This document shows, in pieces, positions 7,860-56,631 of a DNA stretch of 64,000 nucleotides. This DNA is from Candidatus Latescibacterota bacterium. Lineage in GTDB: Bacteria; Latescibacterota; UBA2968. The notes beneath the pieces are model-generated. The model did not search any database. It was not told where the DNA came from and saw only the letters and a list, made by a program, of their open reading frames with translations. Both the position numbers and the translations under genes were made by a program. Every line of letters starts with the position of its first letter. Within the stretch, counting starts at the first letter, position 1. Location: positions 4,992,001 to 5,056,000 of the forward strand of contig OZ242311.1 in NCBI GenBank assembly GCA_965207885.1, in the 5' to 3' direction.

Positions 7860-10800
7860 TCAAGACTGCCCAAAATCCTGTGTGAAGATCAAAAAATCTC
7901 CAATACCAATCTGTCCATCACCATCCAGATCATATCGTGCATCGTAGTTTGCGTGACCAACCGCGTAACCAAAATGAGATGTGAAAAGGAGAAAATCACT
8001 GATCCCCACTGAGCCATCGCCATCAAAGTCTGCTCTTAGTGCCCCCTGTTGAGAAAACCTTAAGACCACAGGATTGGCAAAGGATTCAAATTGTCCAGAC
8101 CGTCGAATACGTGCATATCGCAGGCGTATTTGACCTGTCTGAAAAGTATCCGAAACGCTAAACCGTATCGTGCCAAGCCTCGCGGACTCCTGTGCAATTT
8201 TCCCGCCAAATGACGCTGCCATCACTTCAACAGAAGAAGGATTGGGAGGATAATAAGGTCCTGGCGAATGTCCATTTGGAATACCATCTCCAATATCAAA
8301 ACCCTCGTAAGCTAACGATGGTATATCAAAATCAAACAAAGCGCGAAATCCTATCGCGTCCATAACCTGCTGCCCGTGAATTTCAACGGCAATCACACCA
8401 TCCGAAGGCGTGACATACACACCCTGATTCTCCGACGCATTTGTTACAAGAGATAATGTAAAGGAAGTGGTTTGAGAATGAAGCCCCTTTCCAGCAACAG
8501 GGAAACCGACAGCAGGCGTTTTGGAATCGTTGCTATAAATAGTCACACGCGCTGACAAATCCCCAGTTCTGTTTGGCTCAAAACGAAGCGTAAAAAAGCC
8601 ATTTTGCTTTGCGGGAATCACAAACTGTTTGGGAGTAACACTCACTTGCCCATCACTGGCAATAATATCTGTAATTGACAGAGAAGCGTCTCCAAAATTG
8701 GTGACAGTCACAGTCATAGACTTTGAACTACCGACCTCAACACTACCAAAATCGCGCAGAGAAGCATTGACCGATATTTGCGGAACGGGAACAACGGGTT
8801 GTCGAACGCCTTGCGCTCGCAGTGTCACAGTGGCCTGCGGTAAATTGCTCAAAATGGTCATGTTGCCAGATTTATCCCCCACACTTTGCGGAGAAAAAGT
8901 GACAGAGATCTGTTTGCTACGACCTGGTGCAACGATATAAGAAGATTGGGAAAGACTGTAATCACTGGACGGCAATAGAATATTTGTAATAACCAATGAC
9001 GCCTGACCCGTGTTGACAATCCCAAGATTCAAGGTTTGGGATGACCCCAATAAGACCGCCCCAAAATCGAGCGTAGTACGCGAAAGATTCATGACGGGTG
9101 TACCAACGGAAAGCAAAGACAACTCCAACCTTCCATAGCCATATACATTATCCCGTCCAGCAACCCCCATATCGACTGCAGATTGCGTAAGTGCGTCCTT
9201 CAGCCTTCGCGCATTATAATGGACGGGATCGGCAGATTTTAAGAGTGCTGCTGCACCAGCGACATGGGGCGTCGCCGCCGATGTTCCAAAGTATAGCTCG
9301 GGGCTATAGCTTATGGTACTAACACCAGCAGGTGCAACCAAATCGGGTTTAGTTCGCCCATCAAAAGTAGGACCTTGCGAACTATAAACCGCAACAGGCC
9401 CTGTTGTCCATTGCCAATGATGCAAGGCCCCACAGTTAGCGCACCACGCGCATCCCCCGGTATTCCCACTGATCCTCTAATGGATACAGGCCCATCGAGA
9501 TCGTGATTTTCACTGATCAATTTGAAAAGGGTCACCTTGGCGTCTGATGCTCGCCAAATCGCAAAACCATAGTTTCCCGATTCTCGAATAGTATAAACGA
9601 GATGTTCTACGGGAGGTGACTGAAGTTGTTTGGTATCTGCACGCTCAACAATCTCGGTACTGCCATCTGCCTCAATTTTTACGAGCAAAAGATCGTAGTC
9701 GTGAGACGTGAGAGGCCATTCATTCCAGGTCAACCACGCTTCTACTTCCTCTCCTTTTTGCAGGAACATATTTCCCGTTTGGCGATTTTCCAAGTTGACG
9801 ATTTCATTTTCTCCAGCAAAGTTGTGATATCCATCGCCATCCGGGTCGCTTAACAGCGCAGAGATTTGGCTTTGGGCATAATTCCCTGCAGCATTCACCC
9901 ACAACACATTATTCTGAAAAGCATCATCTACAATTTCGCATGCGCGGCCTGTTCCATCGCCAAAGCCAGTACCCCATCGCCATCCCAAAGATACGGTGAC
10001 AATATCCAGGCCCTCCTGAATAGCCGCATCCTTAGCGTTTTCCAAACTCACCATACCGCTTACTTTATAAAGATAAATTTCAGCATCTGGGGCGATGTCG
10101 TGAACAATCTCAGCACAGGCCGATCCATGCACCCTCGCGCTTTCAGAAAGATGACCTTGTTGAAAAATCCCTTCTCCAGTAAAATCCCGATAAGACAAAT
10201 TGGGCAGTTCTCCTCTATTCTGAAGTGCTGGAACCCCTACAAAACCGACATCAATGACCCCCACTTTTATACCTCGTCCAGTAAACCCCCTATTTGAATA
10301 AACTGACGCCTTAATGTTTGCCACTCCCTCGCTGACAACGAGTGGTTTGGGCTTTATGGGCAATCGCACAAATTGCACACCATCCACATGTGTCAGCCTT
10401 TCAAGAGCAGATATGGGTACAGACACCTCAACCAAATGCCGAGATTGGGCGACAACTCTGACCCCCAAACTGGACAATGCCCCCAAATCAATGCTATCCG
10501 AAAGCCGCCCATAGCGCGGTTCCAATACGACCGTGATATTTTCACCATCGATATCTGCTGCGCCATATTGTCTCGCCGTCGCCTTGGCCAACGCCCGTTT
10601 TTGCGCCACCCAACTCTTTTGAATCCGAGCCAGCACGCCCTCCAATTTTGGAGGATGATCTACCTTTTCGTACTCAATTGGAGCCGCACCAAAAACCACA
10701 GTGCTACAAAAAAACAGTATGATCACAGAGGGAACTAATGCTACATGGCAAAAGAAGTTAGCCAAGCCAGTCTTGCTTGCGGTTGTCATTGCGGCATGCT

Positions 10801-29086: not shown

Positions 29087-29272
29087 CAAAACCTCCTTGC
29101 CTGAAAGAAACCAACCGAAAGAAGCAATAGAATCAGGCAAGGAGTGTGCCAGAACCACTTGAAACAATAAATTGTTGTTATAAAACAATTTACATCATAT
29201 AAAAGTAGGCCTGTATTGAACAATCTTTTCACAAAAACCATCTTCCGCAGAACAAAATGTGCAACACGCCTG

Positions 29273-42308: not shown

Positions 42309-43052
42309 ATGCCAGACTACGCCACTTTTGAAAACCGCTTAAAAAATATCGCGCACCCCGACATTGGCCATCACATCATTGGCCATGTTCACGGTTATGC
42401 TTTTCATTGCCTCACAATTGGCAAACCCGCGCCATCAAAACCGAATATTCTCCTCTCGGCAGGTGTACACGGCGATGAACCCGCGGGGGTCGAAGCCATC
42501 CTTCAATTTCTCGAACGCGATATCGCAGATATAATCCAGCACTTTCACATCGTCGTTTTACCCTGTGTCAACCCTTCTGGATACGTCAACAACCAGCGAG
42601 AAAATATCCAGGGTGAAGACATCAATCGCGCTTTCAAAAACGAAGTCCCCGAATCCACCCTTTTCAAACAGCAGCTTGCGGGATATCGTTTTGACATCTT
42701 TCTCGACATGCACGAAGATTACGACGCAACAGGTACTTATTTTTACGAAGGCAAACGCGATAGCGCGTGGTTGGCCCCAGCCATCGCACAACAGGCAAAA
42801 AAAATTGGTCCCCTGGATGCGGATACCGCTGAAACCGATATCCCACTCGCAGAGGGCGTCTTGCAAATCGATCCCGCCTGGGGTGAAAGCGGTTTTACCT
42901 CTTATGTCTATATCCATCATGCCGGCCACGTCATGATCACTGAAACATCATCCAACTGGCCTATGGATAGGCGAGCTAAAGTACACCTGCTCGCCCTTGA
43001 TATGATCCTCGATCACTATTCGACGGCACTCAAAGGAGAACCACGTGAATAA
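42309..43052 (+). CDS. M14-family zinc carboxypeptidase / succinylglutamate desuccinylase-like
   Basis: [25 protein letters not shown]. Confidence 0.88.
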
Positions 43053-43659
43053 CCCAGCATTCGAACCCATTGAAGATGACCCCGGCCTTCCCCGCGTACT
43101 GATCATTGGGGACTCCATCTCCATTGGCTATACCGTGCCCGTGCGCGAACTGCTCAAAGGCAAAGCCAACCTCCACCGCCCGCTCACCAACTGCGGACCG
43201 ACAAAGCGCGGCATAGAAGAAATCGAAAACTGGCTCAATGACGGTTCCTGGGATGTCATCCACTTCAACTGGGGCTTACACGACATCGTTCACATGAAAG
43301 AAAACGGAGAACGCGTTGATTCCCCGCAAGGCCAACACCAGGTGCCTGCCGACCAATACGAAGAAAACCTCGACACCCTGGTCAAACGCCTCGCACAAAC
43401 CGGTGCCAAACTAATCTGGTGCACCACCACACCGGTTCCCGAAGGCGCGTCCTTCCGCAAACCCGGCGACGAAGTTGAATACAACGCCATCGCACAAAAA
43501 GTCATGGCTGCACACGGCATTCCCACACATGACCTCTATACATACGCTATAGAACGCCTTGACGATATACAACTCCCCGCCAACGTGCATTTTTCAAAAG
43601 AAGGCTCTGCTACACTGGCTAAATCTGTTGCGCAACATATCCTGGATGTGTTGGCCTGA
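43045..43659 (+). CDS. SGNH/GDSL hydrolase
   Basis: IGDSIS, FNWGLHD, NVHF. Confidence 0.9.
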
Positions 43660-43766
43660 GCTGCCTTAAAATTATCAGTAAGTCCTTGAAAATTAAAGCT
43701 CGGATGAGCTTTTGATGAAATTTTCATTGCAAATCCGGGCTTGTATTTTATCGCATTCCAACACGT

Positions 43767-45647
43767 TTATCCAGAAGTGCCAAAGCTGGCGGTAAAGATC
43801 AGAAAATCCTCGAACCCAATCGTCCCATCGCCATCCAGATCGTACCTGGCGTCGTAACCAGAATCGCCTCGACTGGTCCCGAATTTCTCTACAAATGCCA
43901 GGAAATCTGTAAAATCGACCCGCCCATTTCTATCAAAGTCGGGCGTTTTCGCCACCCATTCAGATATATCCCACAGCTTGATCGTTCCATCATAAGACCC
44001 TGAAGCGAGCGTCTTACCATCGGGCGAAAAGACCACTGAAGTGACAGTCCCCGTATGCCCTCTAAGTGTAGAGATATTTTCTCCTGTCGAAACGTCCCAC
44101 AGCCTGATCAATCCATTCCTTCCCCCTGAAACGAGCACTGTCCCATCGGACGAAAAGACCACTGAAGCGAGATAACCTGTATGCCCTGTAAGGGTAGAGA
44201 TATTTTTTCCTGTCGAAACGTCCCACAGCCTGGTCGTTCGATCCCATCCCCCTGAAGCGAGCGTCTTACCATCGGGCGAAAAGACCACATCATAGACACG
44301 ACGATCTGGCCATGGGTGAGAAAATGTAGAGATATTTTTTCCTGTCGAAACGTCCCACAGCCTGGTCGTTCGATCCCATCCCCCTGAAGCGAGCATCCTA
44401 CCATCGGGCGAAAAGACTACTGAGTTGACATTCTCCGTATGCCCTGTAAGGGTAGAGATATTTTTTCCTGTCGAAACGTCCCACAGCTTGATCGTTCCAT
44501 CATAAGACCCTGAAGCGAGCATCCTACCATCGGGCGAAAAGACTACTGAGTTGACATCCTCCGTATGCCCTGTAAGGGTAGAGATATTTTTTCCTGTCGA
44601 AACGTCCCACAGCTTGATCGTTTTATCTCCTGACCCTGAAGCAAACATCCTGCCATCGGGCGAAAAGACCACTGAATAGGTAGACCAGTCATGCCCTATA
44701 CGGGTAAAGATATTTTTTCCTGTCGAAACGTCCCACAGCCTGATCGTTCCAAATACTGAAGCGAGTATCCTACCATCGGGGGAAAAGGCTATATCACTGA
44801 TACCACCCGCATGCCCGGGGAGAAAAAATGTAGAGATAATTTCTCCTGTCGAAACGTCCCACAGCCAGATTATTTCCTGTTCCCCTCCTGAAGCGAGCGT
44901 CTTACCATCGGGCGAATACGCCACTGATCTGATAGAACTATAACTCTCAAGTCCTGGTCCTGTAAGGGTAGAGATATTTTCTCCTGTCGAAACGTCCCAC
45001 AGCTTGATCGTTCCATCAAAAGACCCTGAAGTAAGTGTCTTACCATCGGACGAATACGCCACTGAAGTGACGACATTCGAATGTCCTGTAAGGGTAGAGA
45101 TATTTTCTCCTGTCGAAACGTCCCACAGCTTGACCGTGTCATCATGAGACCCTGAAGCAAGCGTCTTACCATCGGGCGAAAAGACTACAGACTCGATAGT
45201 ATTCGGAAACCTCCTTCTACCATAAGTATTATACCCTATAAGGGTAGAGATATTTTCTCCTGTCGAAACGTCCCACAGCTTGATCGTTCCACCCGTTGAT
45301 CCTGAAGCGAGCGTCTTACTATCGGACGAAAAGGCTACAGACCAGACACTACCCCTATACCCTTTACGATTTCTAAGATTTTCTCCTACCTTAACGTCCC
45401 ATAACTTTTCTCCTGTCGCAACGTCAAACAGCCTGATCCCTCCAGGCCATACCCCTGAAGCGAGCATTGTCCCATCGGGCGAAAAGGCCACTGATCTGAC
45501 CTTATCTGCAGTATCACGCCCTGCAAAGGTGGCAATAAGGTTATTTCCATAACAGGGTGCAGTGAAAAATAGTTGCGATAGAGCCAACGGAAACGCCAAC
45601 GTGAGAATAGCTTTGCCTGCGCGGGTAGAAATGAGTTTGAAACGCAT
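43767..45647 (-). CDS. Secreted WD40-repeat protein with C-terminal dockerin-like domain
   Basis: Signal-like N-terminus; about 12 GH..V.SVVFSPDG..LASG..D..I.LWD repeats; DFDRNG.VDFTDFL..FG..YDLDGDG. Confidence 0.92.
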   Translation of the reverse strand: MRFKLISTRAGKAILTLAFPLALSQLFFTAPCYGNNLIATFAGRDTADKVRSVAFSPDGTMLASGVWPGGIRLFDVATGEKLWDVKVGENLRNRKGYRGSVWSVAFSSDSKTLASGSTGGTIKLWDVSTGENISTLIGYNTYGRRRFPNTIESVVFSPDGKTLASGSHDDTVKLWDVSTGENISTLTGHSNVVTSVAYSSDGKTLTSGSFDGTIKLWDVSTGENISTLTGPGLESYSSIRSVAYSPDGKTLASGGEQEIIWLWDVSTGEIISTFFLPGHAGGISDIAFSPDGRILASVFGTIRLWDVSTGKNIFTRIGHDWSTYSVVFSPDGRMFASGSGDKTIKLWDVSTGKNISTLTGHTEDVNSVVFSPDGRMLASGSYDGTIKLWDVSTGKNISTLTGHTENVNSVVFSPDGRMLASGGWDRTTRLWDVSTGKNISTFSHPWPDRRVYDVVFSPDGKTLASGGWDRTTRLWDVSTGKNISTLTGHTGYLASVVFSSDGTVLVSGGRNGLIRLWDVSTGENISTLRGHTGTVTSVVFSPDGKTLASGSYDGTIKLWDISEWVAKTPDFDRNGRVDFTDFLAFVEKFGTSRGDSGYDARYDLDGDGTIGFEDFLIFTASFGTSG

Positions 45648-45785
45648 GATGGTTACTCCGTTTTAGTGTATAGTGTAGAAGGTTCTATAGGATGGGGAAG
45701 TGGTCCCATACGGTAAAAAGTTCAGTGAGTGCATCAGTCGGGCAACCACAAATCACTACTTTTGACAATATCTCGGAAGCGCGAT

Positions 45786-47723
45786 TTATGACCTTTCTTC
45801 ACCAAAGACGTTGGCGAAGAGCAGAAAATCGCTAAACCCAATCCTGCCATCCCCATCCAGATCATACCGCGCGTCATACCCTGCATCCCCCTGGCTCAAC
45901 CCGAACTGTGCCACAAATAGCAAAAAATCGCCAAAGCCAACCGTGCCATCGCCGTCGAAGTCAGACGGAAGCATTTGAGATGTGATATACAGCGTATCCC
46001 ACAGCAGAACAGTGCCGTCCGCACTTCCGCTTGCTAGGGTCTGCCCATCCGGACTAAACGAGACGCTCCTGACCCAAGCCGTATGGCCTGTGAGTGTGCG
46101 AAGAGGGCTGCCTGTCCTCATATCCCATAAACGGATGGTATTGTCAAAACTCCCGCTTGCCAAAATCTGCCCATCCGGACTAAACGAGACGCTATTGACC
46201 CAAGCCGTATGGCCTGTAAGTGTGCGAAGAGGGCTGCCCGTGCTCACTTCCCATAAACGGATGGTATTGTCCCTACTCCCGCTTGCCAAAATCTGCCCAT
46301 CCGGACTAAACGAAATGCTCAAGACCTGCCCCGTATGGCCTGTGAGTGTGCGAAGAGGGCTGCCTGTCCTCATATCCCATAAACGGATAGTATCGTCCTG
46401 ACTCCCGCCTGCCAAAATCTGTCCATCCGGACTAAACGAGACGCTCCAGACCCAAGCCGTATGGCCTGTAAGTGTGCGAAGAGGGCTGCCTGTCCTCATA
46501 TCCCATAAACCGATGGTATTGTCACTACTCCCACTTGCCAAAATCTGCCCATCCGGACTAAACGAAATGCTCAAGACATTCTCCGTATGGTCTGTGAGTG
46601 TGCGAAGATGGCTGCCCGTGCTCACTTCCCATAAACGGATGGTATTGTCAAAACTCCCGCTTGCCAAAATCTGTCCATCCGGACTAAACGAGACGCTCCA
46701 GGCATGCCCCGTATGGCCTGTGAGTGTGCGAAGATGGCTGCCCGTGCTCACTTCCCATAAACGGATGGTATTGTCAAAACTCCCGCTTGCCAAAATCTGT
46801 CCATCCGGACTAAACGAAATGCTCAAGACATTCTCCGTATGGTCTGTGAGTGTGCGAAGATGGCTGCCCGTGCTCACTTCCCATAAACGGATGGTATTGT
46901 CCCTACTCCCACTTGCCAAAATCTGTCCATCCGGACTAAACGAGACGCTCCTGACCACATGCGTATGGCCTGTGAGTGTGCGAAGATGGCTGCCCGTGCT
47001 CACTTCCCATAAACGGATGGTATCGTCACTACTCCCACTTGCCAAAATTTGTCCATCTGGGCTAAACGATACACTCCGGACACTCCCCGTATGGCCTGTG
47101 AGTGTGCGAAGATGGCTGCCCGTGTTCACTTCCCATAAATCGATGGTATTGTCAAAACTCCCGCTTGCCAAAATCTGTCCATCCGGACTAAACGAGACGC
47201 TCGTGACACTCCCCGTATGGCCTGTGAGTGTGCGAAGATGGCTGCCCGTGCTCACTTCCCATAAACGGATGGTATCGTCACTACTCCCACTTGCCAAAAT
47301 CTGTCCATCCGGACTAAACGAGACGCTCGTGACACTCCCCGTATGGCCTGTGAGTGTGCGAAGATGGCTGCCCGTGCTCACTTCCCATAAACGGATGGTA
47401 TCGTCACTACTCCCACTTGCCAAAATTTGTCCATCTGGGCTAAACGATACACTCCAGACAACCTCTGTATGGCCTGTGATCAAGGAAAGTTCTTCACCAG
47501 TCTGTGTATCGTAGAGCCAAATACCGATGCTGCTTCCAACGGCAAGACGTGTTCCATCCGGAGAGTACGCGATTTCGGATATCCGGCCTTTTCCCAGGCG
47601 TGCTTTTGCACCTTCAGGTAGATGCCACATATTCCCTACAGAGGCGGTCTGGGCAAAGCTTTCCTGCACAAACAGGGCCATAACCAACAAGATAGGGAGA
47701 TGGAACAATCGGTTCTTTTTCAT
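45786..47723 (-). CDS. Secreted WD40-repeat protein with 12 near-identical 42-aa repeats and dockerin-like domain
   Basis: Signal peptide ending SFA-Q; 126-bp tandem units; DFDGDGTVGFGDFLLF tail. Confidence 0.93.
   Translation of the reverse strand: MKKNRLFHLPILLVMALFVQESFAQTASVGNMWHLPEGAKARLGKGRISEIAYSPDGTRLAVGSSIGIWLYDTQTGEELSLITGHTEVVWSVSFSPDGQILASGSSDDTIRLWEVSTGSHLRTLTGHTGSVTSVSFSPDGQILASGSSDDTIRLWEVSTGSHLRTLTGHTGSVTSVSFSPDGQILASGSFDNTIDLWEVNTGSHLRTLTGHTGSVRSVSFSPDGQILASGSSDDTIRLWEVSTGSHLRTLTGHTHVVRSVSFSPDGQILASGSRDNTIRLWEVSTGSHLRTLTDHTENVLSISFSPDGQILASGSFDNTIRLWEVSTGSHLRTLTGHTGHAWSVSFSPDGQILASGSFDNTIRLWEVSTGSHLRTLTDHTENVLSISFSPDGQILASGSSDNTIGLWDMRTGSPLRTLTGHTAWVWSVSFSPDGQILAGGSQDDTIRLWDMRTGSPLRTLTGHTGQVLSISFSPDGQILASGSRDNTIRLWEVSTGSPLRTLTGHTAWVNSVSFSPDGQILASGSFDNTIRLWDMRTGSPLRTLTGHTAWVRSVSFSPDGQTLASGSADGTVLLWDTLYITSQMLPSDFDGDGTVGFGDFLLFVAQFGLSQGDAGYDARYDLDGDGRIGFSDFLLFANVFGEERS
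45995..47480. repeat. 126-bp tandem repeat array encoding WD40 blades
   Basis: Recurrent ...GCCAAAATCTG(T/C)CCATCCGGACTAAACGA...GTATGGCCTGTGAGTGTGCGAAGA... at 126-bp period. Confidence 0.92.
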
Positions 47724-47881
47724 CTGAACAGTTTTCCTTTCAGACGGATGTGTGGGTGACATAATGCAGTTCCTTTCTAACTACTCAGCGTGTGTCAAAA
47801 CTCCAAATGTCATCGCAGATTGGGCAGATTATCTTTTGGATGTGCAAGAGGTGAGCTTTGACAATATCTCGGAAGCGCGAT

Positions 47882-48295
47882 TTATGACCTTTCTTCACTA
47901 AAGGCGTTGGCGAAGAGCAGAAAATCGCTAAACCCAATCAGACCATCTCTATCCAGATCATACCGCGAGTCATACCCTGCATCCCCCTGGCTCAACCCGA
48001 ACTGTGCCACAAATAGCAAAAAATCGCCAAAGCCAACCGTGCCATCGCCGTCGAAGTCAGACGGAAGCATTTGAGATGTGATATACAGCGTATCCCACAG
48101 CAGAACCGTGCCATCAGCAGTTCCAGAGGCCAGCTTTGTCCCATCTGGCGAAAACGACACAGACGACGACGCAGCCGCATGCTTAAAGTTGCTCCTAGCA
48201 CGGCTATCTTGCACGATCAGAAAACTGACCAACAGGAGGGTAAGCTTGAGGCTGATTACCGGAAAAAAGACAGAATGAAGAATGAGCTTTTTCAT
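47882..48295 (-). pseudogene. Internally collapsed WD40-dockerin paralog (signal peptide, partial last blade, dockerin-like tail)
   Basis: 47857-48116 nearly identical to 45761-46020; only one partial WD40 repeat remains. Confidence 0.7.
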
Positions 48296-48429
48296 GGGAC
48301 TATCCTTATAACTCAAGTTGTGTGGTATAAAGGGGACTGTGGCCATGTTTTGACAGACAGCTCAATTTTTGGTAAAAAACTTGTGTTTCATACTGCGCAT
48401 CGTCCTGATAGGAATCCTAACATTTATCT

Positions 48430-49626
48430 TAAAGTACACGACAAAAAATAAAAGACCTGTGCAAAACGTGAAAAAGAGTTAGGTTTGAATGTGTGAAAAC
48501 GAACCTTCTCATCTCAACAAGGCACAGGTCTATGTCTCGTCAAGTTATACAACTTCACCATGTATTGCAAGGCCATTTTGGGTGGCATAAAGCACGCATC
48601 ACTTTCACAGCGGCCTTCATCTTGTCTTTGGTCAAGCTGAGCAGGGTCAACTTCGCCAAATTGGCTAATGCGCTAAATGGACAGGTCAAACCGCAATCAA
48701 ATTACCGCAGGATACAGCGTTTTTTCGCTGAGTTTGACATTCCTTATGAAGCCGTGACGCGACTGATCTTGCACTTATTACCTATAAAGACCGATTTTGC
48801 AGTCTCAATAGATCGCACTAATTGGAAGTTAGGCAAATTCAATATCAACATCCTAACCGCAGGCATTATCTATGAAGGGGTCGCCTTTCCTATGTGTTGG
48901 CACTTGTTAAAAAAACGAGGCAATTCCAATAGTGATGAGCGTATCAATTTGATGAAACAGGTGCTTACGCGCATTCCCAAGTCTCATATCCGCGTTGTAT
49001 TGGCAGATAGAGAATTCATTGGAAGAGAATGGTTTGCGTGGTTAGACACACAAAACATCCCTTTTGTCATCCGCATCAAGGAAAATGCCCTTGTCTCAAG
49101 GGCAGATAGAGAGATACCCATAAAAAAACTCTTTGAAAATTTGCACATCCATCAGCAGGTCAGCCTACAAAGACCTCGCCGCGTTTATGACCTACCTGTG
49201 TATGTGTCTGCGCTAAGATTGAAGGATCAATACCTCATTCTTGCAAGCAACCAACAACGTCAAGTCGCATTGGAGGTGTATAAAAAACGTTGGGGCATTG
49301 AAGTCCTTTTTGCAAATTTGAAAAGTCGAGGATTTAATCTGGAAGAGACCCACCTTATACATCAAGATCGCATTGAAAAACTCATCGCGCTTTTGGCTAT
49401 TGCCTGCACCTGGGCCCATATCATCGGCGAATGGATCGCCCTTACAAAACCTTTGAAGGTCAAAAACCACGGACGGATGGAAAAAAGTCTCTTCCGATAT
49501 GGGTTGGACTATTTGCAGTATGTCCTGCTCAATATACACCAACAAGCCCAGCAGTTCCTCAAATGCATTCGTTTACTGATTAATCCGCCAGATTTTAACC
49601 CGATTTAGGTTTTGTCGTGTACTATG
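48430..49626 (+). mobile_element. IS4-like insertion sequence, 1197 bp, with 9-bp TSD
   Basis: Terminal IR core AGTACACGACAAAA / TTTTGTCGTGTACT; CATTTATCT at 48421-48429 and 49627-49635. Confidence 0.92.
48493..49608 (+). CDS. IS4-family DDE transposase
   Basis: IDRTNW, LADREF, YKKRWGIE..F..LKS (YREK-like). Confidence 0.93.
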   Translation: MKTNLLISTRHRSMSRQVIQLHHVLQGHFGWHKARITFTAAFILSLVKLSRVNFAKLANALNGQVKPQSNYRRIQRFFAEFDIPYEAVTRLILHLLPIKTDFAVSIDRTNWKLGKFNINILTAGIIYEGVAFPMCWHLLKKRGNSNSDERINLMKQVLTRIPKSHIRVVLADREFIGREWFAWLDTQNIPFVIRIKENALVSRADREIPIKKLFENLHIHQQVSLQRPRRVYDLPVYVSALRLKDQYLILASNQQRQVALEVYKKRWGIEVLFANLKSRGFNLEETHLIHQDRIEKLIALLAIACTWAHIIGEWIALTKPLKVKNHGRMEKSLFRYGLDYLQYVLLNIHQQAQQFLKCIRLLINPPDFNPI

Positions 49627-49641
49627 CATTTATCTATAAAC

Positions 49642-49656
49642 GCAAAAAGTGTGCCA
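49642..49656 (-). promoter_or_regulatory. Sigma54 -24/-12 promoter facing the WD40 array
   Basis: TGGCAC-ACTTT-TTGC on the minus strand. Confidence 0.85.
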
Positions 49657-49728
49657 GTGTGAATAAATCCGAACTATTATACTCGTAAGATGTTATTTTT
49701 AATTAGGATAGAATTATTAATAAAAAAA

Positions 49729-49790
49729 GAGCCAGACTTATCTTATATTTTCGAGAACATATATGATCCCAAAAATAATCAGTCTGACTC
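49729..49790. promoter_or_regulatory. Candidate upstream activator (enhancer) inverted repeat
   Basis: GAGCCAGACT...AGTCTGACTC; homologous to 53412-53471. Confidence 0.6.
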
Positions 49791-49847
49791 TTAAGTATTT
49801 TAATAATAGTACTTTAACAATAAAAGAACATATATGGTCCTAAAAGA

Positions 49848-52800
49848 TCATATATGTTCTTTATCCGGGCGTTTGATACCCAGTTTTCTCATTTTCCCAT
49901 ATAACGTCCCAGGGTTTAGTCCCAGCAATGCTGCCGCTCCTCCGACTCCCTTTATTTTCCAATTGGTGGCTTTAAGCATTTCGAGGATATAGCGTCGATC
50001 ATGTTCATCCAAAGACACGACTTCTCGGTCTTGTGGAGTGGGTAAGGTGCTCCTCCTAGGAGGTGAGGCTGTGATTTGAGAACTAATCATTCCAAGATCA
50101 CCCACTTCGATTTGAGAACCGCTGCACACGATTACGGCGCGTTGTATAGTATGCTCTAATTCTCGCACATTGCCTGGCCAATCATAGGCTTGCAGCACTT
50201 CTATCACCTCTACTGTCAAAGGGGCAATTTGCTTATCCAGATGCGCTGCCATTCGATTCTTGAAAAACTCGGCCAGGTCTGGTATATCCTCCTTGCGCTC
50301 GCGCAGAGACGGCAAATACATCGGAAAGGCATTGAGGCGATAATAGAGATCCTCGCGGAAAGTACCTGTGCTGACCATCTCCTTCAAGTCGCGATTCGTC
50401 GCTGCCACAATCCGCGCTTGTATCCTCAGCGTCTCGCTACCCCAACGCGCTCAAACGTGCCCTCTTCCAGCAAGCGCAACATCCTGGCCTGCGTTTCCAG
50501 AATCATGTCGCCGACCTCATCCAAAAAGAGCGTGCCGCCCTTAGCCAGTTCTACCTTGCCCAGCTTGCGAGACACTGCGCTGGTAAACGCGCCCTTCTCG
50601 TGACCAAACAGTTCACTATCAATCAACGTCGCTGGCAGTGCACCGCAGTTGACCTGCATAAATGGACCATCGCACTTGGCACTCAGCGCGTGTAACACCC
50701 GTGCAGCCAATCCCTTGCCCACACCCGTCTCGCCTTTAAACAGTACTGCAAGATTAGTAGATGCGACCTGTCTAAGCTGAATTTGAAACGCGTGAAAAGC
50801 TGCACTCTGACCGATGAATTCTTTGCCAACGCCATCCGTACTGTTGATTATGGAAGTCAGTGCACTGATGCGCGGGTCCATCTCCACCGAAAGCTGCGCC
50901 TGTGCGATCTCTGAATAATTGAGGTCGCGATCTATCGCCTGGACCTGAAACGTGTACTCACCCGGCGGCAAGTCCCGGTAATGTGCCCGCATCTTTCGCG
51001 TCGCAGGCTGCCAGTCGGTATCGTATCCCTCCAAGCGATAGACATAGAGCATGTCGCGGGGATGGGTGGAAAAACTTGTGCCTTTATACTCGAAAATCAT
51101 CTGCTGAACTGTGGTAGATGCGATGATGTCCTGCGGGTTCTCATAGACCTGATCGGCTATCACTTTAAGCAGGCGAATCCGGGGAAGAACTTGTCGCAGA
51201 CGGTAGCGCACCAGAGAATTCAGAATTGTACCGAACCAGAAATTTCCATCGCGATCTTCAAGTATATGGGAAACCGGTTCTATATGCGGTGATTTGATGG
51301 TCTGAAAATGCTGGCCATCGTAGTGAACTACGCCTCCGTCTGTGCCGAGCCAGAGGTGGCCTCGAGAATCCTCGAACAAGCAATGGAGACGATTGCTCGG
51401 CAAACCGTCTTTCGTCGTGAAGGTCTGGAAGGCAACGCCATCAAAGCGACAAAGACCACTCTGAGTGGCGATCCACAGGTTGTCATCGCGGTCTAAGAGC
51501 AGGTCAGTGACACTGCCGTCTATCAGCCCGTCTTCAATCCCATAAAATTTAAGACCACCTTCGGGATGCCAGAGCGCGAAACCCTTGCCAGTACCTGAGA
51601 AATTTTCTTGAGAGAGATGAAAATAGATCTCGCCGTTGTGCCCGGCAATCACAGTGCCAATGCGGCTGAAAGGATCTTTCTTCTCCTCCTCCACAAAAAT
51701 GGTTTGAAACTCCTCGCCTTGCTGATAAATAATCTTCACGGGGCTATCAAAAAGGTCCTCTTTTCCTTTTTTAGAGCCGTTTTCCCAATACCCAAAAAGG
51801 AATCCCCCTTGCGAGTCCTGAGCAATCGCACAAACACTGCTTTCGCCTAAACCCGCGATTGTTTCTATTTTTTCAACCTTCTGCCCTTCGTAGCGGAACA
51901 GGCCATTGCGACCGCCAAACCACAGGTACCCGTCGTGATCCTCGTAGATGGCAAAACAGTTGTTGATATCAAAGTCATTACCGGTGCCTGCGAATGCAAA
52001 GTGCTCCCTATCGAAGCGAAAGACACTCTCGGTTAAACGGTTGATATTAGGAGACGCATACCCGCCCCATATATCACCTCGACAGTCTTGCACAATCTGT
52101 GAGATCTCATACACTCTATTGGATGGCTCTTCACTGGGACCGAAAACACTGATACTATACGCATCGTAAAGGCCGACGCCACCCCAGGTGGCGAACCACA
52201 ACTGATGCTCGCGATCCTGGAACACAGCTTTAACCGCGGGATGAGGCAGGCCATCAGCAGGAGTAAACTTGCTGAACCCACCTCCGTCCAGATAGAGCGC
52301 CCCATTCGCGGTGCAGAACCACATCCGACCTTCTCGATCGCTCTGAATTTTGCGCAGTGCGCCACCTAAATCTGTCTGAACAGACTGGAAGGTGCCATCG
52401 GCATAGCACCAGAGTCTATCTCCATATCCAGGCCGACCGACCCACACCTTGCCGGTATGGTCCTGCCCCACGGCATAGCTCGTCCTGCCTGGAGGAAAAC
52501 CCTCTTTCTCCTCATAGCGATAAAAGGATTCACCATCAAAGCGGATGAGGTAGTCAAAGCCAAACCACAGATGGCCTTCCATATCCTGGGCAATACCCCG
52601 ACATTTGTTGGGCCATTGAGGACAAGGTGGCTGCTCGTAGTCTTGCAGGTAGAGCGAAATCAAGTCGTGGAACACAGCGCCGTCGTAATATCCCAGAGTC
52701 CTGTGACCGCCACACCATATACGCCCTTCACTGTCTTCATAAATGAACTCCACAGCACGGCCTGCGATGCCGTCGTCCTCCAAATGGTGGAAATCTACTC

Positions 52801-53071
52801 CGTCGTACCAGCAGACGCCATTTAATGTGCCGAACCACAACCGGTTCTGACTATCCTTAAAAATAAAATAGACATGGTCGTTAATAAGACCGTCCTGCCG
52901 GGTAAAATGCTGAAACTCGTCTCCATCAAAGCGGCTGGCACCGTTGTTCCATGTAGCGAACCAGAGGTAACCTTCGCTATCTTCGGCAATGTGTTCAATG
53001 CGCACTCCGGCCAGACCATCGGCTATGGAATAAGTCCGCCAGGTGCCCGTTTGGTCAAGTGGTTTGGTCAT
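49848..53071 (-). CDS. Sigma54-dependent activator with N-terminal regulator beta-propeller and Y_Y_Y domains; -1 frameshift at about 50440-50443
   Basis: EDSEG.LWF.T repeats, [44 protein letters not shown]; then [24 protein letters not shown], Fis HTH; adding one G restores [18 protein letters not shown]. Confidence 0.88.
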
Positions 53072-53321
53072 GGAAAGAACCTTGTGATATGGAGAAAAAA
53101 CGGGTTCATAGTGTATCTCACATTTGCAAACTAAATAATAAACATGAGTGCCAAATATCCAAATACAAATTGCTCCTTAATCATTTGCCAAAATTTCCTT
53201 CTTTGTCTCCCCTTGCTTTTAACCTGGAGTAACGGCTGCAACCGATAGACAGATAGGAAATTCAGTCTCGGGTCTGCGTTATCTATTTTCAGGATAAAAT
53301 CTTTAATTTTCTCATTAGAAC

Positions 53322-53336
53322 GCAAAAAGTGTGCCA
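53322..53336 (-). promoter_or_regulatory. Sigma54 -24/-12 promoter facing the activator gene
   Basis: TGGCAC-ACTTT-TTGC, identical to the copy at 49642-49656. Confidence 0.85.
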
Positions 53337-53411
53337 CTGTGAATTGATTCGAATAATTATATTCGTAAAGTGTTACTTTTAATTGGGATAAAATTGTTAT
53401 TTTCAAAAAAA

Positions 53412-53471
53412 AGCCAGACTGAATTTTATATCAAGGGGCAATACATCGCCTCAGATATAATCAATCTGGCT
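53412..53471. promoter_or_regulatory. Candidate upstream activator inverted repeat (second copy)
   Basis: AGCCAGACTGA...TCAATCTGGCT, same 60-bp span as the first copy. Confidence 0.6.
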
Positions 53472-53688
53472 CGTATAATACTTCTTATCAAATATTTATG
53501 TAAATTGGACGAAATTTCGCCCTTAAGGGCGTTTAAGGCCCGTCTTTTTTATTTTAGTAATTGCGTTTGGGCAGCAAGGGAATCAGCTATTGCCATTGCG
53601 CTTTGGTTACATTTGTCGGATATTGCCTGTGTATTCATCGCTTCTTTTTTTTAAAAATAATTTTAAAACAGCTTCTCAGGAGTTTTAC

Positions 53689-54687
53689 ATGTCTTATCGC
53701 ATTGGAATTGTCGGTGCTGGCGGTATCTCGCGTGCTCATGGTCGGGCGGCTGCACAATCTGAACGCGCAGAAATCGTTGCAGTCTGCGATGTCTTGCCCG
53801 AAGCAGTTGAGAGATACCGCGGTGAATTTGACGTCCGAAAAGGTTATACCGATCTCGACCTGATGCTCGACAATGAAAACCTCGACATCGCCATCATCTG
53901 CACATGGGGCCGCTTTCACGCCAGCCTGAGCAATCAAATTGCAAAATCGCAAAAAGTTCGCGCCATCATCTGCGAAAAACCCATCACACAAACCGCTGCA
54001 GAATGCCGAGAAATGGTCGCCTGTGCCAAAGCCAACAATATACTCCTCGCCGAAGCCTTCAAATTTCGCCATCACCCCTTACATCTCAAAACCAAAGAAA
54101 TTCTCGACAGTGGAAAAATCGGAACCCTGGGCAACATTCGCAGCACCTTTTGCACGGGCGTTTCAGACGACCGCCGAAAACCCGAACTCAACTGGCGTTT
54201 CAACAAAGAAAAAGGCGGTGGCGCGGTCTATGATCTGGGTTGTTACAATACCCATCATGCCCGCTTCATTGCCAACGCCGACCCCATCCGCGTCTATGCC
54301 ACGGGAGAATTTGGTCGAGAAGTGGATGAAACGATTATCGCCATCTACGAATTTCCCAATCAGGTCACTGCCCAACTCACATTTAGCTTCAAAATGGCCT
54401 CCTCACAATATTTTGAAATCTCCGGCATCGATGGCATGTTGCGAACAGAACGCGCCTGGAACAACGAAAATCAGCCCACGACCCTTGAGGTCCACACCCG
54501 CGATGGCGTAGAAACCCATGAATTTGAACCCGTCTTTCAATTCCTGAACCAGCTCCATCATCTATGCGATTGCCTCGATACCGGGCAGCCGCACCGCATC
54601 CCGCCCGAAAACAGCATCGGCAATATGAAAACAATGGACGCCATTTACGAGTCCATCAGAACACAACAACCCGTGGACCTTTCTTGA
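53689..54687 (+). CDS. Gfo/Idh/MocA oxidoreductase
   Basis: IGIVGAGGI, ICEKP, GGGAVYDLGCY; AGGAG RBS. Confidence 0.92.
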   Translation: MSYRIGIVGAGGISRAHGRAAAQSERAEIVAVCDVLPEAVERYRGEFDVRKGYTDLDLMLDNENLDIAIICTWGRFHASLSNQIAKSQKVRAIICEKPITQTAAECREMVACAKANNILLAEAFKFRHHPLHLKTKEILDSGKIGTLGNIRSTFCTGVSDDRRKPELNWRFNKEKGGGAVYDLGCYNTHHARFIANADPIRVYATGEFGREVDETIIAIYEFPNQVTAQLTFSFKMASSQYFEISGIDGMLRTERAWNNENQPTTLEVHTRDGVETHEFEPVFQFLNQLHHLCDCLDTGQPHRIPPENSIGNMKTMDAIYESIRTQQPVDLS

Positions 54688-55428: not shown

Positions 55429-56631
55429 TCACTGAGATCCCGTCATCCTCGGCACAGTCCGAAACGCGATTTCCCTCGGATAAAAGAACCCCCGTAACCG
55501 CCCGAGAATCCGCCACTCATTCAAATCCACCACCGTAAGTCCCGGTCCTCCAGCCTGTAGCACAAGCGTTGCAACATAAGCCCGAGATCCATCGGGCGAA
55601 ACCCCGAGTATCGTCGAATCATTCCCCAATCGCAATGTGCGAACAATCAAATTGTGCTCCACATCAATTTCCAACAACACGCCCACTGCGCTTACGTACA
55701 ATAACTTTTTATCGGGCGAAAACTCTGCGCCAAACGAACCCTCCTGATCAATCTGAAGCGCACCCACCACCTGATTGGTATTGAGATCTAAAACAGAAAT
55801 CACACCGCGACTATAATTTGTTACATAAGCGCGCGCACCATCCTGCGTAATTGAAATCTCTAACGGAATATCACCGATAACTATCCTCGCTGTAACCGTC
55901 ATCGTTGTCAGATCCACAACGACCACATTTCGATCGGTTTGATTTGCCACATACAACGTTGTGCCATCGGGCGAGAGCGCGACATCAATTGGTCGATTGC
56001 CCACCAGGATAGAATCTATGGTAACGCCATTCACCACATCCACCACGCGAACCAAGTCCTGCACTTGATCGGCCACATAAGCCCGCGTCTGATCGGGACT
56101 CAGCACCGCTTTCCCCCGCGATTCAACAGGCACGCTAAACTCCACCTGATGGCGCGTGTCCATCTTGAAAAATCCAAACACCTCCGCCACATAAATCGAC
56201 TGCTGATCCGCAGACACTATAACTCCACCCGGACCGCGATAGGGCAGATAATCGATTATCAGATGTGAATCGGAATCCAGTGCCATCACCGAACTATCAT
56301 CTATGTCCGCCACATAAATAATATATCGATCTCCGCTCGGCTCAGCAGGTGTCTGCGATTCACCATAAGAAGCACTAAATGCCAAAAAATCGTTAAAATT
56401 CGTGACCCCGTCTTCATTCAAATCCGTGCGAGGATCATAACTCTCAACCTCAGGGTCCGCATTAAAATTATTGACAAAATGCAAAAAATCGGTAAACGTC
56501 ACCTTGCCATCGCCATCAAAATCCGATCCCATAGGGCCGTTAGCCACCCAAAACACGCGCGTTTCAGCCCGCAGTTCCTCTCCGTTCAGGGCCATAAGCA
56601 TACACAGCACAGCGCAAAAGCGTAAATTCAT
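55429..56631 (-). CDS. Secreted YVTN/YncE beta-propeller protein with N-terminal dockerin-like domain
   Basis: Signal peptide; DFDGDGKVTFTDFL..YDPRTDLNEDG..DFLAF; SPDG..LYVAN and AYVTN repeats. Confidence 0.85.
   Translation of the reverse strand: MNLRFCAVLCMLMALNGEELRAETRVFWVANGPMGSDFDGDGKVTFTDFLHFVNNFNADPEVESYDPRTDLNEDGVTNFNDFLAFSASYGESQTPAEPSGDRYIIYVADIDDSSVMALDSDSHLIIDYLPYRGPGGVIVSADQQSIYVAEVFGFFKMDTRHQVEFSVPVESRGKAVLSPDQTRAYVADQVQDLVRVVDVVNGVTIDSILVGNRPIDVALSPDGTTLYVANQTDRNVVVVDLTTMTVTARIVIGDIPLEISITQDGARAYVTNYSRGVISVLDLNTNQVVGALQIDQEGSFGAEFSPDKKLLYVSAVGVLLEIDVEHNLIVRTLRLGNDSTILGVSPDGSRAYVATLVLQAGGPGLTVVDLNEWRILGRLRGFFYPREIAFRTVPRMTGSQ

Follow-up and report, generated by a model that had tools for sequence, protein, structure and literature searches.

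Two homologous blocks of about 155 bp in the window (the whole stretch of 64,000 nucleotides analysed) are probably two copies of a lineage- or genus-wide regulatory cassette found directly after the stop codons of sigma-54 activator genes that are paralogs of each other. This level of confidence applies jointly to the whole explanation, that is, to the cassette, its palindromes, the origin of the second copy and the decay of the locus.

Twin blocks and sigma-54 promoters

The blocks (block 1, 49637-49790; block 2, 53318-53471) are 76-81% alike, and each contains TGGCACACTTTTTGC, an AT-rich spacer and an inverted repeat, AGCCAGACT...AGTCTGGCT, with arms spanning 60 bp in both copies. This organization was given in the preliminary description and was confirmed against the sequence, as were the distances of 74 and 76 bp between the repeat and the T of TGGCAC. 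The identity between the blocks was 81% across the promoter-proximal 90 nt (family D8), with a mean column identity of 76% across the aligned 341-nt stretches. When the whole 6.23-Mb genome was searched, the best non-self match to copy 1 was copy 2 (E 5.4e-23).

The motif TGGCACACTTTTTGC (TGGCAC-N5-TTGC) lies on the minus strand at 49642-49656 in copy 1 and at 53322-53336 in copy 2, the latter 251 nt upstream of the activator ATG. Since strict TGGCAC-N5-TTGC sites number 69 in the genome, whereas base composition predicts about 12, and the hairpins described below are far more stable than shuffled sequences, the blocks represent more than chance. The consensus -24/-12 promoter is genuine in both. 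A gene for rpoN, whose product has all three domains, was found in the genome, together with four HU/IHF-family genes. Based on an alignment of 19 modules, a conserved AT-rich block (49657-49721 in copy 1, minus strand) is located between the hairpin and the promoter; it reads TATCyyrAnTAAAAATAA... and is followed by ATTCACA before the -24 box. This block is only a poor match to the IHF consensus.

Activator and its paralogs

The neighboring gene had been described as a propeller-sensor sigma-54 activator, and profile matches to Reg_prop (164 bits), Y_Y_Y (51), Sigma54_activat (152) and HTH_8 (27) support this. On the minus strand, the gene is split into an N-terminal frame of 881 aa (50426-53071; Reg_prop repeats, Y_Y_Y, Walker A/B and GAFTSA) and a C-terminal frame of 186 aa (49848-50408; the end of AAA+, AAA_lid_14 and HTH_8). 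The split is due to a 1-nt deletion, called relative to a paralog and a relative, in a G-run at 50440-50443, in agreement with the tblastn gap (32 nt vs 33 nt). No indel variant was found at the frameshift in read-derived contigs from four runs of one sample; these contigs are no independent proof, because they probably derive from the sample behind the genome assembly.

Eight such Reg_prop/Y_Y_Y sigma-54 activators are encoded in the genome, with N-terminal parts 67-75% identical, and the family occurs in 25 of 41 related genomes (counting G000), each having up to 12 matches. Walker A, Walker B and GAFT(S/G/T)A are present in the family, the loop being GAFTSA in most paralogs. The activators have neither a signal peptide nor a membrane segment (maximum 19-residue hydropathy <=1.18) and are therefore cytoplasmic sensors. 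The sensor region is homologous to PDB 4a2l (E 4e-38), 3v9f (E 1.9e-35) and 3ott (E 1.3e-22).

A genome scan for the module returned 14 matches, eight of which adjoin an activator paralog and two more lie within 5 kb of one; relatives carry modules too. A co-directional module was located 3' of the activator gene in 21 of 30 loci, and six loci had none. A sigma-54 consensus occurs <=390 nt past the stop codon in 43 of 69 parsed activator 3' ends and is absent from the other 26; a further 18 of the 87 ends were not parsed by the pattern and were dropped. The block is conserved at orthologous loci: in the nearest ones, homology spans exactly 49635/49641 to 53083, i.e., the activator plus the module, and ends at the predicted start site.

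Hairpins and the inverted repeat

The AGCCAGACT...AGTCTGGCT repeat forms the base of a long RNA hairpin with a U-run after it. In copy 1 (49722-49791, minus strand), the outer arms are 49730-49738 and 49781-49789 and a U7 run occupies 49722-49728; the predicted folding energy is -27.6 kcal/mol for the sense strand vs -14.4 for the antisense strand. In copy 2 (53404-53473, minus strand), the arms are 53412-53420 and 53463-53471, the U8 run is 53404-53411 and the corresponding energies are -29.3 vs -26.1 kcal/mol. Compared with shuffles, the two hairpins had z-scores of -6.8 and -6.6, and 0 of 200 shuffles folded as well. A hairpin followed by a U-run was found in nearly all full modules, and the sense strand was the more stable in 21 of 30. 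In the hairpin alignment, 10 of 16 consensus pairs showed compensatory changes, and 51 G.U vs 10 A.C combinations were counted among 304 cells. Located after the activator gene, the hairpin and U-run read as a terminator. A simple terminator scan, which allows loops of no more than 8 nt, therefore flagged neither hairpin.

These properties weigh against the role first assigned to the repeat, namely that of an enhancer through which the window's activator would act at both promoters, resulting in autoregulation and WD40-dockerin induction. We consider this reading unlikely. It is true that, among paralogs and genomes, no sequence upstream of the promoter is better conserved than the arms, that each arm includes a small CAGnCTG dyad and that the distance of the arms from the -24 box is constant (74-76 bp). 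Moreover, some of the 3' arm sequence (TTCAGACTGATTT) is retained even when a module has no 5' arm, which hints at a sequence-specific role, so a protein may also bind the arms. However, the repeat is common to paralogs of different HTH classes whose other sites differ; it is therefore incapable of giving specificity and would connect all eight sensors to all promoters. The strand-asymmetric G.U pairing and the U-run also speak against an enhancer, and in L020 and the module at 836192 both arms are changed while the pairing is largely kept. In addition, copy 2 originates from the module of another paralog (see below), and a half-site spacing of 50 bp is, to our knowledge, unlike that of activator dyads.

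Palindromes as candidate enhancer sites

Better enhancer candidates, judging from the sequence, are three 14-bp palindromes that are specific to each paralog and lie at about -107, -178 and -197 relative to the -24 box. Their sequence in copy 1 is GAnCATATATGnTC, which the genome contains at only these three places. S1 (GAACATATATGATC, 49755-49768) is at the hairpin apex, its center about -106 from the T of TGGCAC. S2 (49826-49839) and S3 (49846-49859) are 20 bp apart, and S3 overlaps the activator stop codon (49848-49850). The pattern GA.CATATATG.TC occurs three times in 6.23 Mb, all here within 105 bp, vs 0.34 expected.

Across modules the palindrome positions are fixed, at about -107/-178/-197 or at -110/-130, and there is one palindrome type per HTH class, a match that may simply reflect orthology. 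Palindromes agreed at 7.95 of 14 positions within a module vs 6.52 of 14 between clusters (permutation p ~5e-4, 11 clusters); this likeness need not reflect shared recognition, as local duplication or gene conversion could explain it. Beyond general divergence, the link between HTH and palindrome sequences was weak (partial Mantel r 0.135, p ~0.05).

This weakness leaves some room for a different explanation, which we nevertheless regard as improbable: the cassette would comprise only a terminator and a sigma-54 promoter, with the ATATAT palindromes playing a structural part in two tandem hairpins and the true enhancer lying elsewhere, e.g., in the AT-rich block or within the activator gene. 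Indeed, S2 and S3 jointly fold into a hairpin adjoined by a T-run (-17.6 kcal/mol, z -4.9), and S1 forms the tip of the long hairpin. However, independent terminators would not be expected to share a sequence within modules and differ between them, the palindromes are retained where the long hairpin is missing, in tandem pairs at -110/-130 with a spacing of 20 bp, and the motif of the window occurs nowhere else in the genome. Finally, it is very improbable that the block represents a small element of mobile or repetitive nature (MITE/REP-like) or a small RNA independent of its neighbors: there are several copies per genome and a sigma-70-like TTTACA-18-TATTAT directly upstream of the copy 2 hairpin would allow a hairpin RNA of about 75 nt, but 10 of the 14 copies are next to or close to members of one gene family in an unvarying relative orientation, no Rfam family matched (0 at E<=1), and the sigma-70-like hexamers lack conservation in the module alignment and are common (21 found vs 13.9 +/- 3.7 in shuffles).

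Origin of the second copy

Copy 2 carries 14-bp palindromes that differ from those of copy 1, namely GGCGATGTATTGCC at the hairpin apex (53437-53450, minus strand) and GGCGAAATTTCGTC (53508-53521, minus strand). Directly upstream (53523-53558, minus strand) there is a remnant encoding the last 12 codons (...TKIKKTGLKRP*) of an activator paralog. Copy 2 together with this remnant corresponds in relatives to the 3' end and module of a different paralog (identity of 84.6% over 228 nt in G015, 81.4% in G010), and the same three palindromes occur in copy 2 and in these matching modules. The HTH type of the lost paralog was found in none of the eight paralogs of the genome.

We suggest that copy 1, with the WD40-dockerin operon as its cargo, is native to the window's activator, and that copy 2 belonged to a second paralog once located upstream and now deleted except for the last 12 codons. 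Because it adjoins these codons, copy 2 would be a relic of a cascade rather than a device for autoregulation, so the window's activator would have been the second tier of that cascade and not self-activating. The positive autoregulation proposed earlier is thus not upheld.

Cargo genes and decay of the locus

Three WD40-dockerin genes had been reported. All lie on the minus strand, and dockerins and hydrophobic N-termini were found, but one gene is a stub. Gene 3 (43767-45647, 626 aa) encodes a secreted-type protein with 12 WD40 repeats (422.6 bits, 12 stretches), a hydrophobic N-terminus and a C-terminal dockerin (Dockerin_1, 25.0 bits; cut-off 22.9). Gene 2 (45786-47762, 658 aa) encodes WD40 repeats in 12 tandem 126-nt units, 85-90% alike (family D1), and a dockerin (24.9 bits). 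Gene 1 (47882-48346) encodes only 154 aa, a stub in which a hydrophobic N-terminus is combined with a single WD40 repeat and a dockerin-like end (20.0 bits, below the cut-off); over its 3' 300 nt it shares 91% identity with gene 2 (D6).

Between promoter copy 1 and these genes, at the predicted transcription start of copy 1, sits an IS4-type insertion sequence of 1197 bp (48430-49626, plus strand). Neither this element nor the split of the activator gene had been noted in the preliminary description. It has terminal inverted repeats (inverted repeat I2), a transposase gene (48493-49608; DDE_Tnp_1, 64.8 bits) and a 9-bp target duplication, CATTTATCT, at 48421-48429 and 49627-49635. The genome contains 17 copies at >=99.9% identity and 22 at 83.8%, with target duplications at 32 of 39; the sequence across the junction at this locus covers just 27 nt of the IS, so the junction is not formally bridged. 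With the upstream activator lost, the remaining one frameshifted, the start site occupied by the IS and the first cargo gene truncated, the system in the window is decayed or decaying, and a working switch, as initially envisaged, is not supported for this locus.

Elsewhere, the cargo varies between species. Its domains include WD40, LRR, cadherin, fn3, Calx-beta and glycan enzymes (GH5, chondroitinase B, FGE-sulfatase), often with Dockerin_1. Genome-wide, 40 dockerin and 2 cohesin matches were found.

Comparison with known systems

The activators share with enhancer-binding proteins of the NtrC/FleQ/PspF type the AAA+ sigma-54 interaction domain with Walker A/B and a GAFTGA-type loop (FleQ and NtrC are the best PDB matches of this domain, E ~7e-40), the C-terminal Fis-type HTH, the consensus -24/-12 promoter, the presence of rpoN and dyad sites 100-200 bp upstream, here candidate ones. 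They differ in a regulatory domain of about 740 aa (double propeller plus Y_Y_Y) in place of receiver, GAF, PAS or V4R, in the GAFTSA loop of most paralogs, in a putative enhancer site inside the terminator-hairpin apex of the activator's own gene, and in an expansion to 8-12 paralogs per genome, in which the cassette is conserved and the cargo exchanged. Among the papers listed by a literature search, none paired Reg_prop or Y_Y_Y with sigma-54. In one-component proteins of the XylR/DmpR type, a sensory domain binding small molecules gates AAA+ without phosphorylation, as may also be the case here; however, their V4R sensor fold and their targets, catabolic operons, are unlike those of the present activators.

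Homology to Bacteroides hybrid two-component systems such as BT4663 (PDB 4a2l), described as a sensor of heparan-sulfate disaccharides (PMC9067506), extends over the entire sensor region (Reg_prop propellers plus Y_Y_Y), and those systems likewise show paralog expansion with one sensor per regulon. In contrast, the present system is one-component, its activators are cytoplasmic, and the output is sigma-54 AAA+ with HTH_8 instead of histidine kinase/receiver/AraC. Clostridium thermocellum sigmaI/RsgI also comprises paralogous, signal-tuned sensor-regulator units controlling genes for secreted dockerin proteins; eight alternative sigma-I factors are described, and polysaccharide modulates cellulosome composition (PMC4711584, PMC6582324). 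There, sigma-70-family factors are combined with membrane anti-sigma proteins sensing outside the cell, whereas here sigma-54 acts with soluble activators, and the cargo consists mostly of adhesion or eukaryote-like repeats, not plant-cell-wall enzymes.

Proposed mode of action

Along the activator transcript, the elements are ordered as follows. Two 14-bp palindromes with an ATATAT core lie at the end of the gene, followed by the long hairpin with the third palindrome copy at its apex and the U-run, where the transcript would end. The conserved AT-rich block comes next, and then the consensus -24/-12 promoter, which would serve variable cargo genes. Binding of a ligand to the cytoplasmic propeller domain would free the AAA+ domain, which would oligomerize on the paralog's own three palindromes (at roughly -130, -200 and -220 relative to the start site) and open the sigma-54 closed complex by ATP hydrolysis. 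In this lineage, the cassette would drive genes for secreted, animal-like surface proteins built of repeats, many of them with dockerins.

The Activator Gene and Its Frameshift

All genes of the locus lie on the minus strand and follow one another, from high to low coordinates, as copy 2 of a block of about 155 bp (53318-53471), a sigma-54 activator gene, copy 1 of the block (49637-49790), an insertion sequence (IS), a gene for a 154-aa stub and two WD40x12-dockerin genes. The activator was read in two frames. The N-terminal frame (53071-50426, minus strand, 881 aa) carries Reg_prop (164 bits), Y_Y_Y (51.1 bits) and Sigma54_activat (PF00158, 152.5 bits), and the C-terminal frame (50408-49848, minus strand, 186 aa) carries AAA_lid_14 and HTH_8 (27.3 bits versus a cut-off of 22). 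The protein has Walker A (GETGVGK) and Walker B (LFLDEV) motifs and a GAFTGA-type loop, GAFTSA; GAFT(S/G/T)A was found in seven paralogs, and one was unmatched by the search pattern. The propeller-sensor sigma-54 activator proposed in the preliminary description is present, but its single frame is broken by a 1-nt deletion, a G missing in the run 50440-50443, which splits the AAA+ domain. In the tblastn alignments, the gap at this site is 33 nt in seven paralogs, which are contiguous, versus 32 nt in the window. The GGGG of the window is GG(A/G)GG or GGGAG in one paralog and one relative, and the activator frames of relatives are open (1062-1158 aa). Contigs from four runs of one sample span 50004-50486 without difference or gap; since the assembly was probably made from this same sample, they give no independent proof of the frameshift.

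Eight activator paralogs were found in this genome, and the family occurs in 25 of 41 related genomes (this one included), with up to 12 matches per genome. Relatives in the protein database number in the thousands and bear generic names only, the best being an intact 1067-aa protein with 91% identity. The NCBI labels of close relatives conflict (Gemmatimonadetes versus Latescibacteria MAGs). Several runs annotated as sponge, coral or marine metagenomes shared 0.10-0.19 of the words of the stretch, and we draw no habitat conclusion from these small shares. No RNA data set was listed for the stretch, a result that speaks neither for nor against its expression.

Twin Blocks and Sigma-54 Promoters

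The coordinates, promoter motif, inverted repeat and spacing previously described for the two blocks were all confirmed on the sequence. The sigma-54 promoter TGGCACACTTTTTGC is identical in both copies (49642-49656 in copy 1 and 53322-53336 in copy 2, minus strand), and the inverted repeat arms (49730-38/49781-89 and 53412-20/53463-71) lie 74 and 76 bp, respectively, from the -24 box. The copies share 81% identity across the promoter-proximal 90 nt and a mean column identity of 76% over aligned 341-nt stretches, and copy 2 is the best non-self match of copy 1 in the whole genome of 6.23 Mb (E 5.4e-23). Strict TGGCAC-N5-TTGC sites number 69 genome-wide versus about 12 expected. The expected rpoN gene was found intact (196 bits, 495 aa, all three Pfam domains).

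Several further signals were recorded. Strict sigma-54 consensus sites also occur at 51645-51659 (minus strand), within the activator coding region, and at about 29137-29151 (minus strand), upstream of another gene. The promoter string TGGCACGGATATTGC is identical at five places of the genome (C1: 814438, 836192, 1257234, 1328068 and 2028426), two of which lie behind activator paralogs. The strongest sigma-70-like match in the region (TTTACA-18-TATTAT, 10/12, 53475-53504, minus strand) immediately precedes the copy 2 hairpin and might yield a short hairpin RNA; other modules do not conserve it. HU/IHF-family genes are present in the genome. As an IHF site, the AT-rich block fitted the consensus poorly, and it is kept here only as a conserved AT-rich block.

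The Inverted Repeat as a Probable Terminator Hairpin

The inverted repeat had been taken for the enhancer of the activator. Alignment of 19 full modules (palindromes, hairpin, AT-rich block and sigma-54 promoter) revealed a long hairpin with outer arms AGCCAGnCTGA/TCAGnCTGGCT, an AT-rich middle and a GC-flanked apex, directly followed in nearly every full module by a run of T5-8. Folding of the sense RNA gave -27.6 kcal/mol for copy 1 and -29.3 kcal/mol for copy 2 (z -6.8 and -6.6), compared with -14.4 and -26.1 kcal/mol for the antisense RNA, and the sense strand was the more stable one in 21 of 30 distinct modules, including nearly all with both arms. The RNAalifold consensus contains compensatory changes in 10 of 16 pairs, and among its 304 cells, G.U outnumber A.C by 51 to 10, an asymmetry to be expected if the sense strand forms an RNA hairpin, but not for a double-stranded protein site. 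Moreover, the arms are common to paralogs with differing HTH and other sites, which likewise speaks against the enhancer reading.

A stable RNA hairpin that leads straight into a U-run behind a gene has the form of an intrinsic terminator; for copy 2, the upstream gene is a 12-codon remnant only. Neither hairpin was listed by a terminator scan with a loop limit of 3-8 nt, and this limit explains their absence from the list. An Rfam search of 43000-54500 gave no matches at E<=1. Based on the folding and the alignment, the inverted repeat is probably the terminator of the activator gene. Since 3'-arm-like sequence persists in modules without the 5' arm, the arms may have a second, sequence-specific role.

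Candidate Enhancer Palindromes

Better candidates for activator sites are 14-bp palindromes with an ATATAT-type core, whose distances from the T of TGGCAC are fixed: about -107, -178 and -197 in full modules, and -110 and -130 where the long hairpin is lacking. In copy 1, S1 (GAACATATATGATC, 49755-68) occupies the hairpin apex, and S2 (49826-39) and S3 (49846-59) have the same motif, with S3 overlapping the activator stop codon. The genome has three occurrences of the pattern GA.CATATATG.TC, all at copy 1, versus 0.34 expected. Palindromes resemble each other more within a module than between clusters (7.95 versus 6.52 of 14 positions; permutation p about 5e-4, 11 clusters), and this also holds for the flanks alone (p about 9e-4, 11 clusters).

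There is one palindrome type per HTH class: a class defined by a 10-residue string goes with GAnCATATATGnTC, the class STLYTKMKK with GACGTTATAACGTC, in two different site arrangements, and the class STLFNKIKR with GGCCATTTATGGCC. With divergence controlled, the association is marginal (partial Mantel r 0.135, p about 0.05), so the HTH-palindrome match may reflect orthology. From their geometry, uniqueness and within-module similarity, the 14-bp palindromes seem, on balance, the likeliest sites of the activator. The design would be compact, with a candidate enhancer site inside the apex of the preceding gene's terminator.

Modules Across Genomes and Cargo Exchange

A genome scan for modules and their downstream genes, proposed earlier as a check, was carried out with a profile built from five copies. 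It gave 14 promoter-containing modules, of which, by coordinate comparison, eight adjoin a paralog, two lie within 5 kb of one and four are elsewhere; the genes behind them vary. A MITE- or REP-like mobile repeat was considered for the 155-bp block, but 10 of the 14 copies adjoin or lie within 5 kb of one activator family, and this explanation was rejected. Among 30 loci from relatives and this genome, 21 have a co-directional module directly after the activator stop; in three the module is upstream and divergent, and the other six lack one. A sigma-54 consensus lies at most 390 nt after the stop, mostly at 160-240 nt, in 43 of 69 parsed 3' ends (87 ends in all, 18 unparsed and excluded).

Homology between the window and the nearest orthologous loci (G007 and G006; L047 and L048) extends from 49635/49641 to 53083 and not beyond; the G007 ortholog, an intact protein of 1064 aa, is 88% identical to the window activator at the protein level. 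The 53083 limit is 12 nt upstream of the activator ATG, and the limit on the side of the cargo, i.e., the genes driven by the cassette promoter, is the predicted transcription start. These limits define the conserved unit as the activator plus module up to the start site, with differing cargo. Synteny of the activator with WD40-dockerin genes was not borne out in these relatives, where the cassette is kept and the cargo is a dockerin-LRR protein in G007 and a 410-aa protein, whose sole match is the NCH3 family, below the cut-off, in G006. To judge from these loci, cargo is evidently swapped at the start site between species.

In a search of 26 genomes (this one included), the 280 nt of leader and N-terminal region of the first cargo gene gave matches of only 24-35 nt in genomes of the same genus, where no counterpart of the WD40 operon leader was found; hence, the WD40 cargo is not conserved with the cassette. 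A single sizeable match to the N-terminal coding part of the stub (74% over 150 nt) was found at G029:C1:2281430-2281581 (L065), in a genome of another family. Among the cargo encoded behind modules here and in relatives is a protein of 2694 aa that combines dockerin, fn3, cadherin, GH5 and LRR domains; further cargo proteins have Calx-beta with FlgD_ig, LRR, cadherin-like with Ig, chondroitinase B with LRR, or FGE-sulfatase domains. The F1 module is separated from paralog F2 by a small Imm_superinfect-family gene (59.6 bits; C1:2027840-2028163, L058:12840-13163).

The WD40-Dockerin Genes

The two WD40x12-dockerin genes encode proteins of 658 and 626 aa with Dockerin_1 scores of 24.9 and 25.0 bits, respectively. 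The third WD40-dockerin gene of the preliminary description is the 154-aa stub, which retains one WD40 repeat and scores 20.0 bits, below the cut-off of 22.9. The last 300 nt of the stub are 91% identical to the 658-aa gene. The stretch 45786-47762 contains twelve head-to-tail 126-nt WD40 units, 85-90% alike apart from two end units (62-64%). The array has recently been homogenised or expanded and is recombination-prone, and the neighbouring stub looks like a deletion product. The 120-140-nt gaps between the three WD40 genes, inspected by eye, contained no sigma-54 promoters or terminators, and these genes were therefore treated as one operon.

The genome contains 40 dockerin matches, two of them elsewhere in the window (about 56383-56523 and about 7884-8033, both on the minus strand). 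Two Cohesin matches were found (39.1 and 34.6 bits versus a cut-off of 24.1), the open frames being 1268 and 3038 aa long, and these proteins may be partners of the dockerin cargo. Both matches lie at C1:721112-728341 (L062 and L063).

Decay of the Window Unit

An IS4-type element of 1197 bp (48430-49626; DDE_Tnp_1, 64.8 bits) with 20-nt terminal inverted repeats (90%) is inserted at the predicted transcription start of the copy 1 promoter. Its target duplication of 9 bp (CATTTATCT) shows a simple insertion, before which the promoter adjoined the cargo operon without interruption. The predicted start, 11-13 nt past the GC of the -12 element, falls at 49629-49633, within this duplication. Reads do not formally bridge the junction, the read-derived contig extending just 27 nt on the IS side. 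The element is very active: the genome has 39 copies, 17 at >=99.9% identity and 22 of an 84% relative, and 32 of the 39 have 7-9-bp target duplications in AT-rich DNA. Targeting of sigma-54 promoters by the IS was considered and rejected, since a strict site is found within 200 nt of just three of the 39 copies and AT-richness is all that marks the targets. One copy of the 84% relative (C1:5393851-5395045) lies between a cargo gene and paralog C, 81 nt before the start of the latter; a target duplication was looked for around it, and none was found.

Copy 2 had been proposed to serve positive autoregulation of the activator, and the evidence speaks against this proposal. First, its palindromes (GGCGATGTATTGCC, GGCGAAATTTCGTC and CGCCCTTAAGGGCG) differ from the copy 1 set and are those found after a different paralog (HTH STLFSRIKRLGLKRP) in G015 and G010. 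Second, window positions 53556-53331 match the locus of that paralog at 84.6% over 228 nt, a match exceeding that between copies 1 and 2. Third, the match starts within the last codons of the paralog, and ...TKIKKTGLKRP* is still readable at 53523-53558. None of the eight paralogs of this genome has an HTH of type STLFSRIKRLGLKRP. Tandem paralog pairs occur in this genome (neighbours B2-B1 and F1-F2) and are many in relatives. From the foreign palindromes, the 84.6% match and the coding remnant, we infer that the window activator once stood behind another paralog, an upper tier that appears to have been deleted. Taken together with the frameshift, the stub and the IS at the cargo promoter, the loss of this tier reads, on comparison of the loci, as neutral decay of an orphaned unit. 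The unit in the window is a dead copy and is thus unsuited to functional tests. Overall, the preliminary description is supported in part: the sigma-54 activator with consensus promoters stands, but the inverted repeat as enhancer and the autoregulation are not supported.

Comparison with Known Systems and Proposed Mechanism

The sensor region is homologous over its full length to the solved periplasmic sensors of Bacteroides hybrid two-component systems (HTCS; PDB 4a2l, E 4e-38; 3v9f, E 1.9e-35), with which it shares the Reg_prop propellers and the Y_Y_Y domain. BT4663, one such Bacteroides HTCS, is described as binding heparan-sulfate disaccharides (PMC9067506). In HTCS, however, the sensor is periplasmic, between membrane segments, and the output is a histidine kinase, a receiver and AraC, whereas the paralogs here are without such segments and have a sigma-54 AAA+ and HTH output. 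No hydrophobic 19-mer above 1.18 and no signal peptide were found in any of the eight paralogs; in the window activator, histidine kinase, receiver and AraC domains were absent, Pfam giving only Reg_prop, Y_Y_Y, Sigma54_activat/Sigma54_activ_2, AAA_lid_14 and HTH_8. The missing signal peptide and membrane segments, together with the sigma-54 AAA+/HTH output, point to a soluble one-component activator. With bacterial enhancer-binding proteins, the system shares the AAA+ domain with Walker A/B motifs and GAFTGA-type loop, the C-terminal HTH, rpoN and the -24/-12 promoter; enhancer binding, for which the palindromes give positional and comparative evidence, and ATP-driven activation are predicted.

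Based on these features, we suggest the following as the most likely mechanism. An imported sugar or similar ligand would relieve the hold of the propeller on the AAA+ domain. The freed activator would assemble on its three palindromes and open the sigma-54 complex, with synthesis of a set of surface or secreted proteins as the outcome.

A tentative joint reading, to which we give rather low confidence, is that the Bacteroides glycan-sensor fold was made into a soluble one-component sigma-54 activator, with 8-12 "plug-and-play" units of sensor plus terminator-enhancer-promoter per genome, cargo exchanged exactly at the transcription start, sometimes two-tier cascades, and sugar-dependent display of dockerin-tagged proteins. 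Equally tentatively, the displayed set could comprise eukaryote-like adhesion proteins (WD40, LRR, cadherin, fn3) and matrix-degrading enzymes, differing by the imported sugar.

Biological Significance

The components, i.e., enhancer-binding proteins, sigma-54 promoters, terminators, dockerins and IS, are known. In the records listed by our literature search, the pairing of Reg_prop/Y_Y_Y with sigma-54 was not found in print. As far as these records go, the new elements are the sensor class of sigma-54 activators, the compact terminator-enhancer-promoter cassette and the swappable cargo.

Eukaryote-like repeat proteins and dockerin-tagged surface proteins have been catalogued in many uncultured bacteria; accounts of how they are switched on are, to our knowledge, few. 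The regulatory grammar described here, in which a sensor paralog is paired with three specific palindromes and a sigma-54 promoter, would tie such proteins to one sensor family and make regulons predictable by sequence throughout a genus. It also illustrates how such a unit may evolve, by cargo swap at the start site, tandem chaining and decay after loss of the upstream tier. A soluble sensor domain with solved relatives makes ligand screens feasible, as are promoter-reporter tests in a surrogate host. If the joint reading is true, uncultured bacteria would express eukaryote-like proteins conditionally, and sequence would allow this expression to be predicted.
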